A stretch of DNA of 7,011 nucleotides from a virus (taxonomy: Duplodnaviria > Heunggongvirae > Uroviricota > Caudoviricetes), in the IMG/VR virus record IMGVR_UViG_2648501165_000013, positions 1 through 7,011 of that record. One strand, 5' to 3'. The translations under genes and the position numbers were made by a program. Below, one piece after another: positions 1 to 7,011 of this stretch. The notes under the pieces are model-generated. The model was not told the DNA's origin. It ran no database searches and worked only from the letters and a program-made list of their open reading frames with translations. How positions within the stretch are numbered: the first letter of the stretch is position 1; the number at the start of each line of letters is the position of its first letter.

Positions 1-1236
1 CTACGATAGCCGCGCATTCAACATGGCTACCTGTTCGTCGTTCATATCATCAATCCACATACCGTAAATTTCATACACCATCTGCGCAGTTTCATGCCCC
101 ATCTGGCTGGCTATAAATGCCGGGTTCGCTCCTGCCGTCAACAGCCAGCAGGCAAAAGTATGCCGCGTATGGTACGGATTACGGCGGCGAATACCAGCAC
201 GTTTTACTGCTGCATTCCACCTTGCCCCCAAACTGCTTACCGAGTAATAAGGTTTCTGTTTTCCGTTACACACCCTGGGCATGAAAACAAAATGCAGTTT
301 TTGCTTTTCGGTTCTGCCGTACTCCCGATGATAAAAGGTGATTTCGCTTTTGCGATGATGCCCGGTCAGTTTGTATTGCTCCTTCAGTGCTTCAAGAGCA
401 GGATGCAGTAATGTTACTGTCCGGATCCCGGCATTTGTTTTTGGGGGACCGAACATATCCAGTATCGTCAGGTTTCTTCTGACATTCACAGTTCCCTTCT
501 CGAAATCCACATCCTCCCACGCCAGAGCTGCCAGTTCCCCGTGACGAAGCCCGGAGTAAACGGCAAATTTCCACAAGTTTTGGCTCTGTCCTTTTTCACT
601 TTCCATTAATGCATTGAATTCTGTTTTAGATAACGGGTCAGGCTTTATTCTGTTTCGCTGTAATTTTTTTACTCCTTCAAATGGTTTGGTTGATATAAAT
701 CCCGACTGATACGCAAAACGTAACAGCGAACAGAGCAGGGCGATATAGTTATCAACTGTGCGCACGGTTCTTCCTTTTTTGTTGGATCTTGGATTATCCA
801 GGTAAAGCGTTTCTCCATGCAGCAGTTCATTCCGGTAGTTTAAGATATCGCTATAACGAATATATGATATCGGGGTACTTTCACAAATTATTATTCTGAG
901 TGTTTTTAATTGTGATTTCGTTTTCTTCATTGTGTTTGTTGTTAACTCTGTCTCTTTAATTTTTGTCCAGATATCACAAAGCTCCCCGAACGTTTTTATG
1001 ACTCTCGTTGTCACCATTTTTGCCCCAGTGCTGGACTGGGGAAAACGTCTTAAATACTCAAATTCACCGGAGTTTATTTCATGAACTATCAGCGCTCTTA
1101 AATTTCCGGCCTTTTTAATATTACTGTTTGTAATCTCCCAGCCTTTTAATGTTTCCCGACATCGTTTTCCTCGAAACATGAACCAGATGCGAATGTTTCT
1201 ACCTCTAATCTCGACACCTGTTGGTAATTTAGACAT
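1..1236 (-). CDS. intR: Tyrosine-type site-specific integrase, Rac prophage IntR-like (411 aa)
   Basis: Complete minus-strand ORF (ATG at 1236-1234, TAG at 3-1). Translation starts MSKLPTGVEIRGRNIRIWF and has C-terminal tyrosine-recombinase signatures (GLRHGEL, HTRHTFA, GHETAQMVYEIY with a candidate catalytic Tyr). Matches my recollection of E. coli K-12 Rac IntR. Its start lies 1 nt past the xisR stop, suggesting translational coupling. Confidence 0.92.
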   Translation of the reverse strand: MSKLPTGVEIRGRNIRIWFMFRGKRCRETLKGWEITNSNIKKAGNLRALIVHEINSGEFEYLRRFPQSSTGAKMVTTRVIKTFGELCDIWTKIKETELTTNTMKKTKSQLKTLRIIICESTPISYIRYSDILNYRNELLHGETLYLDNPRSNKKGRTVRTVDNYIALLCSLLRFAYQSGFISTKPFEGVKKLQRNRIKPDPLSKTEFNALMESEKGQSQNLWKFAVYSGLRHGELAALAWEDVDFEKGTVNVRRNLTILDMFGPPKTNAGIRTVTLLHPALEALKEQYKLTGHHRKSEITFYHREYGRTEKQKLHFVFMPRVCNGKQKPYYSVSSLGARWNAAVKRAGIRRRNPYHTRHTFACWLLTAGANPAFIASQMGHETAQMVYEIYGMWIDDMNDEQVAMLNARLS

Positions 1237-1237
1237 A

Positions 1238-1453
1238 TCATGAGTCTTTGATAAACTGATTTATCTTTGGATAGTTGTACCAGATAATCCCTCGTTTGCT
1301 GTCTGGCTTACCTAAAGGAGATACTCGTTTGAAGTGGAAGCCCTCCACCCAACAGTTCTGGCGGTATGCTTCAATTTGTCTGGCCCCCAGACCAGTGCGA
1401 AGCATCAGGCCGTATTCAACCATCCACTCTTCATTAAAGATTACTTGTGCCAT
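1238..1453 (-). CDS. xisR: Excisionase-like protein, XisR/YdaQ (71 aa)
   Basis: Minus-strand ORF translating [71 protein letters not shown], ending TGA at 1240-1238. ATG at 1453-1451 is preceded by GAGGTGA about 5 nt upstream. The ORF-track version (to 1477) starts at a TTG with no better ribosome-binding site, so the ATG is preferred. Position directly upstream of intR fits an excisionase. Confidence 0.8.
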
Positions 1454-1467
1454 CGCATCACCTCTGG

Positions 1468-1500
1468 CAGGCGCCAATGTTAGACTGAAATTGACGCCTG
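1468..1500. promoter_or_regulatory. Imperfect inverted repeat (11-bp arms, 11-bp spacer) in the xisR-intR upstream region
   Basis: caggcgccaat (1468-1478) and attgacgcctg (1490-1500) are reverse complements with one mismatch. The repeat sits 15-47 nt upstream of the xisR start, in the only sizeable intergenic gap (1454-1552). No T-run follows on either strand, so an operator is more likely than a terminator. Confidence 0.25.
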
Positions 1501-1552
1501 ATGTTGATTATTAATAATCAGCTATGAAGTTTTAATTTGAATACAATGCAAT

Positions 1553-1712
1553 TCACGAGGACTGAAGTTTCTCGCAATTAAAATTTATCAGTTTTACTTT
1601 CTGCTCTCTGGAAACGCCTGCTTCTTTTTTACCTGAGAGCATTTTTTCGCATTCTGATTTCGTTAGTTTAGATTTTGAATATCTTGTCCAGTTAGTAGGA
1701 GTGCCACCTTCC
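1553..1712 (-). CDS. Small hypothetical protein at the position of Rac ydaC; 5' end lost in the N run
   Basis: Minus-strand frame open from the N run down to TGA at 1555-1553, translating ...EGGTPTNWTRYSKSKLTKSECEKMLSGKKEAGVSREQKVKLINFNCEKLQSS. It lies between ralR and xisR as ydaC does in K-12 Rac. The start codon cannot be located because 1713-1722 is N. I do not recognise the protein sequence itself. Confidence 0.5.
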
Positions 1713-1722
1713 NNNNNNNNNN
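1713..1722. other. Run of 10 N (gap or masked bases)
   Basis: Ten consecutive n characters; separates the ydaC-position ORF from the ralR stop. Confidence 1.
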
Positions 1723-1735
1723 TGTAGCGGTAATT

Positions 1736-1942
1736 TTATACATGAACGCCTCCATTAATATTTTCAGTGGTTCGTTTATCCCATCTTTCGAGCGCTTCTT
1801 TTTCACTTCCACCATAGCCAGTTCGGGATTCGCATCCGTTGCATTTTGCCCGGTAATATCATGAAATGTCTTTCACCGTTACTGATGGACAACCACAAAA
1901 CGGACATGGTTTAACATCGTCATATCTCAAAGTTTTTGTCAT
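1736..1942 (-). pseudogene. ralR: ralR (Lar-family restriction-alleviation protein / RalR DNase toxin) interrupted by an in-frame TGA at codon 28
   Basis: Minus-strand frame from ATG 1942-1940 reads MTKTLRYDDVKPCPFCGCPSVTVKDIS, then TGA (1861-1859), then continues in the same frame as YYRAKCNGCESRTGYGGSEKEALERWDKRTTENINGGVHV to TAA at 1738-1736. Cys pairs on both sides of the stop (CPFCGC and CNGC) indicate one ancestral 68-codon gene. An alternative in-frame ATG at 1969-1967 has a better ribosome-binding site. Confidence 0.7.
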
Positions 1943-1986
1943 AAAAACTATCTCACGTTGGCGGTGCATTACACCGCCTGGCTGAA

Positions 1987-2796
1987 TTATTCTTCTGAAT
2001 TATCGATTACACTGTATTCCCCGGTTAATACAGAGGAGTCTGCCGGATCGATTGTCAGTGGTTCCTTTTCATCCATTGATACTGCACGCTGGATTTCAAT
2101 TGAGACAGGCAGGTATTTAAACAGGCGACGAATAGCCGTTTTTTTTGCCATTTCTTCCCAGTGAGTTACCCACGGCCCGTTATTACCTGCCTTACTCTGG
2201 CTGCGCACCAGTTCAATCTGTTTGCGCGTCATAACTTCAAACTGAGTCCCTCCGTCTTTCAGTCTTGCGACAGCATAGACGTGGGTCACTGGTGCATCTT
2301 CGTTTTCTCCCGGGCGGTGTATTAACTTTTCATCAAGGCCAAATTCGAAGCTAAACTCGTCACCTTCACGGACAACACGGGCTGACAGGCTGGCGATTTG
2401 ACCAGAACGGCGAGCCAGATCAATCATGCCGCGATAGCCAATGATTAGCTGAACGTTCTTTTTACCGCTCTTTTCGTTTTTATTACCAAAAGGCAGTAAA
2501 TATGCGTGGCCAAGGGCGCTACCTGGCTCAAGGCCGAGCTGTGAACACTGTACGATTGCACTGACAAAACTCATAGTGTCACAGTTTCCTAACGCTGGAA
2601 CGTTACGAATTTCTGTGGTGGCGATACGGATCATACGTTCAGCCGTCATATGGCGTGGAAGAGCTGCTGCCAGTTGCTCTTTCATTGATGGCTGGTTAAT
2701 AAAACTAATCACGTCGTTATTTTTAACTGCTGCTGGTGCACGGTTTCCCTGAGTTTTTTGCAGATCGGCTTTTGCGATTGGTGGTTGCTTAGTCAT
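1987..2796 (-). CDS. recT: RecT single-strand annealing protein (269 aa)
   Basis: Minus-strand ORF translating [50 protein letters not shown]...VIDNSEE, matching my recollection of K-12 RecT. ATG at 2796-2794 is preceded by AGGA. The start overlaps the recE stop (ATGACTAA); the ORF-track N-terminal extension to 2853 is recE 3' sequence in another frame. Confidence 0.95.
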
Positions 2797-3798
2797 TTGC
2801 ATATTCCTTAGCCCAGCGGGGCAGTGATAACGTCTTAATAGCTGGCCATTCATCGGTATTGAGGCAGTCAGCCAGGGTCCTCAGATTGCGGTGATATTCC
2901 TGCTGGCCTGCCAGTTTTGCTTCTTCGCCCATCATGAAAATCTCAATCGGGTAACGTCCGCATTCAACAGTTGTGCTGGCAACCAGAAAAACGAAAGTTG
3001 GCAGCACACCAAACTGTGCTTCATAACCGTCACTGTAGAATGCATCCTGAACGTGATAGCGGTAGTCGTAATAAGCCGTTTTGAATCGTTGAATATCCGC
3101 TGTGGTTTTCACGTCCATGATCCAGTGAAATTCAGGAATAATTTTGTCCGGACGGCACCGACACAAAATTCCTGTTTCCGGATCTTCCCAGTAAATTGAT
3201 GATTCAGCGTGTCCGGCGCTTTCCACAAGCCATTGACCCAGCGGCAAAGCCATAACGCTCTGATACATGAGTTCAATTTTCCGGCCTTCTTCGGCAGTGA
3301 TAACCGTTTTTCCTGTGCTTGCGCATTCCATCAGAAACGCTTTCTCTTCTTCTTTTCCGGCGTTTGTACGGCGGTTAAATTCAGGTGCTACGATAAAGCG
3401 GTTACTGAATTCTTCCGGTTCAAGTACACGGCAGTGGAAAGCGGTTCCTAAATCGAGCGTTTTTGTCTTTGTGGTGTCCACAGGGGCATTTTTACGCCAC
3501 AAATACAGCGCCGGAGTATCAGCAATGTCGTCGAGCTGAGACTTACTGACACCGGGACCCGCGTGGTAATTCTCATTCGAAATTCCGTAATAAATACCAG
3601 GCTCTATGTCTCCTGCGATTACGGGATCTGCGACTTCGCCAGTTTCATCACTGCAATCGCGATGCAGATCGCTGCCAGCATTCTCATTGTGCGGATGTTC
3701 AGGGCCTTCCATTTCCTCCGGCTCTTTTTCCTGAGATTCATCCAGATTTTCTTCATTAAAGGTTTCCTGATACGTTGCGTCGCCCATCACCGCACCAC
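2789..3798 (-). CDS. recE: recE 3' portion: exonuclease VIII C-terminal nuclease domain (about 336 codons); 5' side ends at an N run
   Basis: Minus-strand frame reads [60 protein letters not shown]...[24 protein letters not shown]...[11 protein letters not shown], ending TAA at 2791-2789. The PDK...IMDVK pattern fits a PD-(D/E)XK nuclease and the C-terminal sequence matches my recollection of K-12 RecE. Upstream of 3799 the ORF-track frame is not RecE. Confidence 0.9.
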
Positions 3799-3808
3799 NN
3801 NNNNNNNN
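3799..3808. other. Run of 10 N (gap or masked bases)
   Basis: Ten n characters exactly at the switch from recE sequence to bet sequence. Confidence 1.
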
Positions 3809-3950
3809 GCAGTGCGATAAACTGCGCATCGCTGGCATTGCCTTTAAATGCCGTCTGGCGAAGAGTGGCGATCAGTTCCTGCGGGTCGACAGTATCCATG
3901 CCGACACGTTCAGCCAGCTTCCCGGCCAGTGTTGCAAGTGCTGTACTCAT
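3809..3950 (-). pseudogene. bet: 5' fragment of bet (lambda Red-beta family annealing protein), first 47 codons only
   Basis: ATG at 3950-3948 with GAGGT about 9 nt upstream. Translation MSTALATLAGKLAERVGMDTVDPQELIATLRQTAFKGNASDAQFIAL matches the lambda Bet N-terminus as I recall it. The frame runs into the N run and then continues out of frame over recE sequence ([13 protein letters not shown], stop at 3758-3756). Confidence 0.8.
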
Positions 3951-3955
3951 TTGTT

Positions 3956-4255
3956 TTATACCTCTGAATCAATATCAACCTGGTGGTGAGCAATGGTTTC
4001 AACCATGTACCGGATGTGTTCTGCCATGCGTTCCTGAAATTCAACATCGTCATCAAATGCGCGACTGATTGCCTGTTTGCTGGCACCGTGGCGTTGCAAA
4101 TGGTCGATGCAGAGCGATTCAAACAGGTGCTGAGGCAGACCTTTTTCCAGGTCGTCCGCCAGTTCCGTTTCTTTTTCTTCGCGAACGATCTTCTGGTAGT
4201 GGCGTGACCATGCCAGCTCTTCAATGCGATCAAAAATCGGGCATGTGCTCATCAT
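3956..4255 (-). CDS. gam: Gam-like RecBCD inhibitor, short GamS-type form (99 aa)
   Basis: Minus-strand ORF translating [99 protein letters not shown]. The C-terminal 75 residues are near-identical to lambda Gam as I recall it; the N-terminus is divergent. A stop lies two codons upstream in frame, and the gene ends 5 nt before the bet ATG, the same gam-then-bet order as lambda. Confidence 0.85.
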
Positions 4256-4373
4256 CTGTTACCCCAAAATTTTCAAGTTTGTTTGCGATCATCATTGCAA
4301 TACCCGGAATTAATGGCGCTGAGGCTATACCTGCAGGATTCGCACATAAACCGTAAACCGCCGCAATCACCAC
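4230..4373 (-). CDS. Hypothetical small hydrophobic protein (47 aa if GTG start) overlapping the gam start; may instead be the C-terminal tail of a longer recE-like ORF
   Basis: Frame reads [47 protein letters not shown] to TGA at 4232-4230. It has a transmembrane-like hydrophobic core and overlaps gam by 26 nt, the position kil occupies in lambda. There is no in-frame ATG with a ribosome-binding site; the frame is continuous upstream with the recE-like RDCSDETGE codons. Confidence 0.3.
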
Positions 4374-4444
4374 TTGTCTTTTCCAGTCGAGTTTTTCTAA
4401 TGATGAAGCTGTTGCTTCGCCAGTTTCATCACTGCAATCGCGAT

Positions 4445-4454
4445 NNNNNNNNNN
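4445..4454. other. Run of 10 N (gap or masked bases)
   Basis: Ten n characters inside the recE-like acidic linker, between VRENE and RDCSDETGE. Confidence 1.
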
Positions 4455-4556
4455 CTCATTTTCCCGAACTTCAACCTGATTCTCGTCATCGAATGTTTCC
4501 TGATATGTTGCGTCGCCCATCACCGCACCACAGTCAGGGCAGTTATCCCCGCCAGA

Positions 4557-4719
4557 CTGACCGCAGGCGGTGCAAACTTTCTCCGTTTCCTGTTGTTGCA
4601 CTACTGGCTCAGGCTGTTTCGTTTCTGGCTCGTTTTGTTGCGTATTTTGGTCGTTCTGTTCCGTTTCTGGCTGATTCTGGTATATAGAGTCGCGGGTCTG
4701 GATCCCCTTAACCCATTTC
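4557..4719. repeat. Diverged direct repeat, copy 2 of a ~160-bp recE module ([10 protein letters not shown]...CTACGQ)
   Basis: Aligns to 4731-4890 with a 3-bp length difference and roughly 75% amino-acid identity ([54 protein letters not shown] versus [53 protein letters not shown]). Confidence 0.8.
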
Positions 4720-4729
4720 NNNNNNNNNN
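4720..4729. other. Run of 10 N (gap or masked bases)
   Basis: Ten n characters exactly between the two copies of the ~160-bp module. Confidence 1.
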
Positions 4730-4730
4730 T

Positions 4731-4890
4731 CTGACCGCAGGCATTGCAGACTATTTCCGGTTTCTGTTGCACTACTGGTTCAGGTTGTTTCACATCCGGG
4801 CTGGTTTTTACAGTTTCTGGCGTGTTTTGTTCCGTTTCTGGCTGGTTCTGGTACACAGAGTCGCGAGTCTGGATCCCCTTTACCCATTTC
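4731..4890. repeat. Diverged direct repeat, copy 1 of the ~160-bp recE module ([10 protein letters not shown]...CNACGQ)
   Basis: See its partner at 4557-4719. Confidence 0.8.
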
Positions 4891-4914
4891 GGATCGTTCG
4901 GGTCGCTAATCCCT

Positions 4915-5706
4915 TCAACGAACTCACCACGCGAAGCAGCCAGTAATTTGTCTGCATCGACAGGATTTTTGGGCGGAATGTTTTTCCGGGCTTCATGGAG
5001 TTCTGCCCGCAGTTTCTGATATTTTTCATCAACAGAATTTACCTGTGACTGAGCATCCAGCGGCTGCGTGTCCTGATGATGTTCAGTTGCATCCGGTTCC
5101 ACTGTTTCAGCCGTTGCCTGTTCATCTGCCATTGCGCAAGATGGTTGCAGTTTTTCTTCATCATCCTGTTTTTCTTCTTCTGTTACACGCTGCGGCATCG
5201 GGGCAGAGGAACGACCGCAGGCAATATCCACGATTTCTGGATCAGGGTTGGCATGATCAGTTTCAGTCAGTACTTTGTTCAGATATTCAGTGACGTGCGC
5301 GGGGATGACCTCGATCCCAATTGGTGCTTCTTTCACGGACGCAACCACGATGGCGCGGGAATAATCCAGCCCGCCAGGCATGGTGATGAATTTGTCGCGG
5401 AAAACAGAAAAGGGTGGTTTATTTTCAGCGATAATTTCCTCGACACGTTTAGCGTGTGCCGGATGAAGGTTATAAATGTCCACGTCCATTGAACGAGCCA
5501 GTACGCCAGTGGCTACGTCGCGCGCCAGTGACGTCAGATCGTGAACGAAACCTTCGCCGCGATCGGTGAGGTTCCCGCCGCCAGCATTAGCGCCGGAAGC
5601 CGTGCGCGTGATGCGTGAAACACGATTTCCTTTTCGCCATTCTTTTGTCAGAAGACCGCGATCAATGTGTTCGGTATCCAGCCAGGCTGAAATGAAATTC
5701 TTAAAT
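4915..5706. repeat. Direct repeat copy A (~792 bp) of recE coding sequence
   Basis: Aligns base for base at an offset of 802 with 5717-6508. About 475 bp (4936-5410) is essentially identical (one difference seen), the next ~300 bp is about 93% identical, and 4915-4935 differs at every third position (wobble sites). The plus-strand ORF-track entries 5045..5293 and 5847..6095 have identical translations. Confidence 0.95.
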
Positions 5707-7011
5707 NNNNNNNNNNTCAACAAATTCTCCGCGAGAGGCAGCCAGTAATTTGTCTGTATCGACAGGATTTTTGGGCGGAATGTTTTTCCGGGCTTCATGG
5801 AGTTCTGCCCGCAGTTTCTGATATTTTTCATCAACAGAATTTACCTGTGACTGAGCATCCAGCGGCTGCGTGTCCTGATGATGTTCAGTTGCATCCGGTT
5901 CCACTGTTTCAGCCGTTGCCTGTTCATCTGCCATTGCGCAAGATGGTTGCAGTTTTTCTTCATCATCCTGTTTTTCTTCTTCTGTTACACGCTGCGGCAT
6001 CGGGGCAGAGGAACGACCGCAGGCAATATCCACGATTTCTGGATCAGGGTTGGCATGATCAGTTTCAGTCAGTACTTTGTTCAGATATTCAGTGACGTGC
6101 GCGGGGATGACCTCGATCCCAATTGGTGCTTCTTTCACGGACGCAACCACGATGGCGCGGGAATAATCCAGCCCGCCAGGCATGGTGATGAATTTGTCGC
6201 GGAAAACAGAAAAGGGCGGTTTATTTTCAGCGATAATTTCCTCAATGCGTTTAGCGTGTGCCGGATGAAGGTTATAGATGTCCACGTCCATTGAACGGGC
6301 CAGAATGCCAGTGGCTACGTCGCGGGCCAGCGACGCCTGATCATGAACGAAACCTTCGCCGCGATCGGTAAGGTTCCCGCCGCCTGCATTAGCACCGGAA
6401 TCTGTGCGAGTGATGCGTGAAACACGATTCCCTTTTCGCCATTCTTTTGTTAGAAGACCGCGATCAATGTGTTCGGTGTCCAGCCAGGCTGAAATGAAAT
6501 TCTTAAATTCATAGGGCTGATGTTTTTTCGTGATAGAGAAAACTGCCTTAATTGCATCAGTCAGGCGGAGCAGGGCGGCATTATCCAGAGTTGTCGGTTC
6601 TGCCATGCCGCGTATGGCCAACAGCAGATTCTGGACATAGCTGTTTTCCTGATCCATCTCAAGAGCAGTAATGTGTTTGCGTTGTTCACGGGTGGCATGA
6701 TGCAGGTATTTCCGATCCCCGGCCGCATACGTAAAAATGTGCAGAAGACGCTGTGTGAACCGCAAAGTGGCTACAGAGACTTCGCAATCCTGGCAATCCC
6801 CGTGGGCGTCTGCCTGCGCGTTTTCTTCCAGGCCTCCCGCCAGTTCTTTGGTTTCCTGAGCATTATCCTGGTGGTGAACGTCGTCTGGCGCTGCTCCCGG
6901 TTTTAGTTCCCAGGTCATGGAGTCTTTGCTGAGTTGATAGCGGTCACTCCAGGTAAAATCGATCTCACCTTCAGGGGGCAGGTCATTAACGACAGGAAAA
7001 TTCGTGGCAAC
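5701..7011 (-). CDS. recE: recE 5' portion (RecE N-terminal, non-nuclease region); start lies beyond the window end; frame stops at 5703-5701 just past the N run
   Basis: Minus-strand frame open from the window edge reads [43 protein letters not shown]...[42 protein letters not shown]...[11 protein letters not shown]. The conserved blocks match my recollection of K-12 RecE residues from about 60 onward; the stretch between them is a divergent allele. The frame is +1 relative to copy A, so it terminates right after the junction. Confidence 0.8.
5707..5716. other. Run of 10 N (gap or masked bases)
   Basis: Ten n characters exactly at the junction of the two ~792-bp copies. Confidence 1.
5717..6508. 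repeat. Direct repeat copy B (~792 bp) of recE coding sequence
   Basis: See copy A at 4915-5706. Confidence 0.95.

Follow-up and report, generated by a model that had tools for sequence, protein, structure and literature searches.

A nonsense allele of the toxin gene ralR in a Rac-type prophage of Escherichia coli: distribution and probable loss of function

The ralR gene of a Rac-type prophage was found to be interrupted by a premature TGA codon, and it is highly probable, judging from the sequence comparisons described below, that this represents a genuine, inherited loss-of-function allele which originated by a G to T change at the Gly24 codon, the loss of function being predicted from the truncation of the encoded protein. 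The stretch of DNA analysed (hereafter referred to as the window) is 7,011 nucleotides long and corresponds to the left arm of the prophage on the minus strand, comprising intR (1-1236), xisR, a DUF1187 gene (1553-1743), ralR, recT and recE. The allele is already annotated as a pseudogene in public genomes and is a pseudogene of a known kind. Its significance lies in that a one-base change would be sufficient to disarm a type I toxin, with the antitoxin RNA surviving through the DNA that it shares with another gene. A literature search covering the original lar work and reports of ralR pseudogenes returned nothing specific beyond a single study of the K-12 system (Guo et al. 2014, PMC4041452).

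The ralR (lar) pseudogene occupies 1736-1942 on the minus strand as a frame of 68 codons extending from an ATG at 1942-1940 to a TAA at 1738-1736, and translation of 1942-1736 yields MTKTLRYDDVKPCPFCGCPSVTVKDIS, a stop, YYRAKCNGCESRTGYGGSEKEALERWDKRTTENINGGVHV and the terminal stop. The premature TGA (1859-1861, minus strand), followed by a T, is codon 28 when counted from the upstream ATG and corresponds to Gly24 in the K-12 numbering. It divides the gene into a still translatable part of 27 codons (1862-1942), which encodes MTKTLRYDDVKPCPFCGCPSVTVKDIS with the first CxxC knuckle only, and a stranded 3' part (1736-1858), which carries the second CxxC (C34, C37) and a helix with the A..W-N-x-R motif. 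A mechanically compiled list of open reading frames agrees with this translation, the frame at 1859-1969 terminating at the premature TGA. Such a split frame, with cysteines on either side of the stop, had been proposed in the preliminary description of this DNA, and retranslation reproduced its coordinates exactly; C13, C16 and C18 precede the TGA, C34 and C37 follow it, and the homology to RalR resumes in the same frame past the stop.

Identity of the interrupted gene was assessed with two protein family profiles. When the stop is read as Gly, the 68-aa product scores 153.3 bits against the NCBIfam RalR equivalog NF007260 (cutoff 113), covering positions 1-64 of the 64-position profile, and 50.8 bits against Pfam PF14354, Lar_restr_allev (cutoff 28.6). 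Either half alone falls below the cutoffs of both profiles; the translatable 27-aa part reaches 23.9 bits against PF14354 and 50 bits against NF007260. Since the repaired product passes both profiles and the halves fail, the frame represents a real gene with a stop inside it and not a chance open reading frame. The NF007260 match, along with the Rfam match to RalA nearby (see below), bears out the preliminary assignment of the locus to the toxin gene of the RalR/RalA type I pair. An uninterrupted 64-aa RalR frame is not present, the frame being broken at TGA 1861-1859, and the locus is thus a pseudogene of the RalR family rather than a functional member.

The consequences of the truncation were examined in the context of the Lar family, for which a profile search retrieved 2,567 representative proteins, 75 short ones being used for the alignment. 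Residues C9, C12, C30, C33, N51 and R53 are invariant in all 75 representatives and W50 is present in 74; all six invariant residues are encoded in the window frame. The truncated 27-aa product is devoid of two of the four invariant cysteines and of the W-N-x-R helix. An AlphaFold2 model based on the 75-sequence alignment (mean pLDDT 77.7) places a helix at 43-52 and, between the knuckles, two strands (17-22, 25-30), with residue 24 at the turn of the beta-hairpin connecting the two CxxC knuckles. As the stop is located between the knuckles, the presumed metal site loses one of its halves and the conserved helix is lost altogether. Position 24 itself is variable, with Gly in 35 of the 75 representatives and G, D, E, S, N, R, F, T, Y and K among the residues that occur there, Arg being found in one Salmonella homologue. 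Ribosomes would be expected to stop after 27 residues, or after 23 if the TTG equivalent to the K-12 start were used, and the short peptide, with the first CxxC only, would be unable to fold into the four-cysteine domain and would probably not be toxic. K-12 RalR lost its toxicity when the GSEKEA residues, which lie downstream of the position of this stop, were altered (Guo et al. 2014, PMC4041452). DNase activity and toxicity, neutralised by RalA and Hfq, are known only for the K-12 allele of RalR (PMC4041452).

The description of RalR as a zinc ribbon is weakly supported by these data. A search of the model against PDB folds returned no match at an E-value of 0.001 or better; the best hits were a translation initiation complex subunit, RNA polymerase III C11 and ELOF1, all zinc-ribbon proteins, at E-values of 0.15-0.5. 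The Pfam Zn_ribbon_Elf1 profile scores 15.3 bits against RalR, which is below its cutoff, and a sequence search for solved structures gave chance-level matches to a chitin-binding protein only.

The 268 unmasked bases of window 1723-1990 were aligned with the corresponding DNA of fetched genomes to establish the ancestral state. The nearest intact allele is that of strain SJ7, where ralR is annotated as intact and a single difference is observed in 268 nt, namely G for the T of the window at the stop codon. The stop is therefore a single transversion at the first codon base (window 1861), which converts GGA (Gly) to TGA, and since GGA is present in SJ7, 13P484A, K-12 MG1655, 2015C-4944, PK8241 and O26 RM8426, TGA is the derived state. 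The proposal that the full-length gene is ancestral and was broken by a nonsense mutation is thus upheld by the one-base difference from SJ7, by GGA elsewhere and by the pseudogene calls of PGAP. Two further statements in the preliminary description also proved accurate on alignment: K-12 has GGA here, encoding Gly24 of its 64-aa protein, and the two alleles differ elsewhere as well, at five further residues (N5D, A21D, N51D, G56E and N58I) and at 24 of the 268 aligned bases.

A census was performed among 5,426 complete E. coli genomes using the exact 30-mer centred on the TGA, or the version with GGA and the same flanks. A ralR-like match is present in 1,883 genomes, the TGA 30-mer in 18 and the GGA version in 107. 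In each of the five TGA carriers inspected, ralR is annotated by PGAP as pseudo with an internal stop, and only two extra single-base changes were observed over 268 nt in five carrier loci, one synonymous and the other in the spacer upstream of ralR. Cattle, beef and human stool are the main sources of the carriers. No difference other than one N run separates window 1-3798 from strain SCPM-O-B-9504. Over 3.8 kb, the 18 carriers fall into three haplotype groups with identities to the window of 99.7% (9 genomes), 99.2% (2) and 98.2% (7). In two carriers from different groups (our loci L001 and L008), a 2.5-kb block extending from the recT 3' end through intR is shared with 2 mismatches, while divergence reaches about 3.7% over the recE 3' end and the recT 5' end, and about 1% over the chromosomal flank from ttcA to zntB. 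The shared block amid differing flanks, together with the haplotype groups, indicates that the allele is established and transmitted among backgrounds and is not a recent accident of one strain. The TGA would have arisen on a single ralR background (Asp21, with TTG at the position of the K-12 start) and is now found in Rac-type prophages adjoining ttcA. The comparison of L001 with L008 also revealed a sharp recombination boundary inside recT, as is typical of mosaic lambdoid prophages.

The neighbourhood of ralR is otherwise well preserved. According to the open reading frames of the window and the annotation of the closest genomes, ralR is located between recT and xisR/intR, with ttcA beyond intR. 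The recT gene (1987-2796, minus strand; taken from the open reading frame list and from coordinates transferred from L008) is intact and lies upstream in the same leftward Rac-type operon. A resident prophage in decay had been offered earlier as the setting for the disabled toxin; this does not agree with the closest complete genomes, where the annotation gives intact kilR, ydaE, recE, recT, DUF1187, xisR and intR genes and the toxin gene alone has been hit. The 44-nt spacer between recT and ralR contains a GC-rich hairpin, GGCGGTG-TAATG-CACCGCC (1960-1978, minus strand), which is kept in all seven aligned alleles and has no T run directly after it.

The gene of the antitoxin sRNA RalA (1557-1737, plus strand) is antisense to the DUF1187 gene and matches Rfam RF02694 over the complete model (1-179 of 179) with 201.5 bits (gathering score 170; E 1.7e-48), its sequence being nearly identical to that of K-12 RalA. 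A pairing site of 16 nt between RalA and the ralR coding region has been defined experimentally in K-12 (Guo et al. 2014, PMC4041452). In the window, the RalA pairing segment CTGCTTCTTTTTTACC was located by sequence at 1618-1633 (plus strand) and its site in ralR, GGAAGTGAAAAAGAAGCG, at 1793-1810 (minus strand), now 3' of the premature stop. The pairing core is the same as in K-12, and at the 3' edge of the ralR site a single A to G change replaces an A-U pair by G-U. RNAduplex applied to the whole of RalA and the whole of ralR gave a long, meaningless duplex, and placement by sequence was used instead. The DUF1187 gene (1553-1743, minus strand) is at the position of K-12 ydaC/rcbA, and its ATG (1743-1741) overlaps the end of ralR. 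It possesses its own GGAGG six bases 5' of the ATG, and its translation is therefore probably independent of that of ralR. Its copy in the carrier L008 scores 132.2 bits against PF06688, and its product is WP_001302840.1 in TGA and GGA carriers alike. RalA, its pairing site and the DUF1187 gene keep the sequence needed to function; as RalA shares its DNA with the DUF1187 gene, it would be constrained whether or not the toxin works. A consensus scan of 1400-2100 for promoters and terminators gave three promoter-like sites where 1.9 were expected, no terminator, and no promoter at the mapped 5' end of RalA; a TACAAT near RalA (1542-1547) was spotted by eye.

The start of ralR seems, from the sequence context, to have shifted between allele groups (window 1928-1969, minus strand). 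The start used in K-12 and in the PGAP annotation corresponds to window 1930-1928, four codons after the ATG at 1942; the codon there is TTG in the window allele, against ATG in K-12. In the window allele, the ATG at 1942 is preceded by GTGAGA and the TTG at 1930 has no ribosome-binding site, and the reverse holds in K-12, where TTGAAA precedes the first ATG and GAGA the second, all of these sites being judged by eye. The TTG start set by PGAP for this allele group may be wrong.

The quality of the draft scaffold deserves separate consideration. The window contains five runs of exactly 10 N (1713-1722, 3799-3808, 4445-4454, 4720-4729 and 5707-5716). The run at 1713-1722, inside the RalA and DUF1187 genes, stands for the 8 real bases ATTGAAAA, and since 10 N replace 8 bases, the runs look like joins between draft contigs and not like length-preserving masks. 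Past 3798, recE copies that overlap one another and a segment from another lambdoid phage are joined end to end in the scaffold. Window 3809-4444 is foreign to the recE region of Rac and includes a lambda-type Gam at 3956-4255 (minus strand; PF06064, 190 bits), and 3756-3950 (minus strand) encodes what we take to be the N-terminus of a lambda Bet-like protein. Segments 4730-5706 and 5717-7011 cover the same stretch of recE, corresponding to 5000-5976 (97.2%) and 4497-5791 (98.7%) of L008, respectively. The scaffold thus appears to be stitched from different prophages, and the two recE contigs are probably copies from two Rac-like prophages of one genome that were set in tandem during scaffolding; the long 'recE' open reading frames given for this part are accordingly artefacts.

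With a scaffold of such low quality, in which one of the five 10-N joins replaces 8 bases only 14 nt beyond the ralR stop and the recE part includes overlapping and foreign contigs, an error of sequencing or assembly in a gene that is really intact has to be considered, and was raised as an alternative in the preliminary description. This is very unlikely, as the identical TGA and flanks occur in 18 complete genomes, finished independently by many laboratories on many sequencing platforms, and the window is base-for-base the same as nine carriers over 3.8 kb, the N run aside; an error would need to recreate a known natural allele by chance. Assuming that the stop is real, the frame might be rescued during translation. 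Restart of translation for the C-terminal half was considered and rejected, because a codon scan beyond codon 28 revealed neither ATG nor GTG nor TTG in frame, the only candidate being ATT (codon 62). Among the stop codons of E. coli, UGA is the leakiest, and low-level readthrough inserting Trp could supply an attenuated full-length RalR still held in check by RalA. The variability of position 24 in the Lar family and its location in the hairpin turn of the model suggest that a rare Trp product could stay active, and RalA and the pairing site are fully kept. However, a following U gives UGA its strongest termination context, and Poole, Brown and Tate reportedly found in 1995 that no other UGA context in E. 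coli is terminated as efficiently; the 81 nt that surround and follow the stop are not more stably folded than shuffled sequences (z = -0.04), offering no stimulatory structure 3' of the stop; Trp is unseen at position 24 in the 75 representatives, being absent from the 12 commonest residues listed; and the retention of RalA is explained in any case by the conserved DUF1187 gene, with which it overlaps throughout. Readthrough of this kind is accordingly given a slim chance.

Recoding of the TGA as selenocysteine, for which only the combination of a cysteine-rich protein with a TGA stop can be cited, is improbable in the extreme. The ancestral residue is Gly and not Cys, homologues carry Gly or other residues but not Cys, and the sequence downstream is the same in the GGA alleles, so that nothing has co-evolved with the TGA, which is in addition the rare form (18 genomes against 107 with GGA). 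With no SECIS-type stem-loop detected in the folded region (z = -0.04) and an ancestral Gly, both selenocysteine and other structure-driven recoding were rejected. A function for the remnant, whether of the 27-aa peptide acting alone or of the untranslated 3' region of ralR as a partner or sponge of RalA, might be argued from the persistence of the allele with little further damage (the two single-base changes over 268 nt noted above for five carrier loci) and from the intact pairing site. Little further decay is expected of a young allele, though, and proves nothing; the single CxxC knuckle is below both family thresholds, and no separate family of such short peptides was found among the homologues. 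We regard this explanation as highly improbable. An inherited nonsense allele that encodes a truncated and probably inactive RalR remains the preferred reading.

Loss of ralR is recurrent, as a second, independent nonsense allele is present in 310 genomes. In O26 strain RM8426 (positions 460-609 of our locus L010), a ralR allele on a K-12-like background carries a TGG to TGA change at Trp50, a codon that reads TGG in the window (1783-1781, minus strand). The exact 30-mer of this Trp50-stop allele occurs in 310 of the 5,426 complete E. coli genomes, O157:H7 and O111:H8 strains among them. Counting the two specific nonsense alleles by exact 30-mers shows that, among the 1,883 complete E. coli genomes in which a ralR-like match was obtained, at least 328 (about 17%) have a premature stop in the gene. 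Since premature stops are this frequent and the commoner allele is annotated like an intact short protein, surveys that score RalR/RalA as functional in O157:H7, O26, O111:H8-labelled and similar genomes will overcount. The protein database also holds frameshifted forms of RalR and ralR-DUF1187 fusion forms. In the fusion proteins P0008, P0010 and P0016, an N-terminal part of RalR is joined to a C-terminal part of the DUF1187 protein, and the junction in P0008, between GSEKEA and GVSREQ, is located at the short direct repeat constituting the RalA pairing site (window approximately 1793-1810 and 1618-1633). This suggests that deletion between the pairing-site repeats is another route to toxin loss.

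The Gly24-stop allele may have spread either through selection against the toxin or through drift and hitch-hiking, and the repeated hits in ralR may reflect either selection against a DNase toxin or the fragility of a dispensable gene. A bolder and improbable proposal is that the Gly24 stop (18 genomes), the Trp50 stop (310 genomes) and the deletions or frameshifts at the pairing-site repeats are not neutral but disarm RalR independently of one another and under selection, with RalA and the DUF1187 gene being kept, such that an orphan RalA would guard the host from the RalR of incoming Rac-like phages, or, as a variant, that low-level readthrough at UGA-U would leave an attenuated toxin.

Comparison with the known members of this system places the window allele as follows. 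The K-12 Rac RalR/RalA pair (ralR = lar, b1348; PMC4041452) has the same order of recT, ralR, a gene at the position of ydaC with RalA on the opposite strand, xisR and intR, with a ralR DNA identity of 91.4%, a nearly identical RalA and the pairing site kept. It differs in that the window ralR is stopped at Gly24 and carries five more residue changes, in that the K-12 start is a TTG here, with an upstream ATG with a better ribosome-binding site available, and in the downstream gene, which encodes a 62-aa DUF1187 protein here and the 69-aa rcbA product in K-12. Within the Lar family (PF14354, TIGR03655), the repaired protein displays the shared succession of CPFC, CxxC and A..W-N-x-R, whereas the protein as encoded in the window ends between both knuckles. 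The Trp50-stop allele of O26, O111:H8 and O157:H7 is similar in having a premature TGA in the ralR of a Rac-type prophage with the same DUF1187 protein 3' of it. However, it is an independent mutation and far commoner (310 genomes), keeps both CxxC knuckles while W50, N51 and R53 are removed, and is called by PGAP as a 49-aa protein and not as a pseudogene. The closest relatives are the TGA alleles of the RefSeq complete genomes (such as 2013C-3264, SCPM-O-B-9504, UTME-3 and OkiPb01680), with the 268 nt identical in 14 of them and one base off in 4; no relevant difference separates these from the window, which is thus a draft copy of a known allele.
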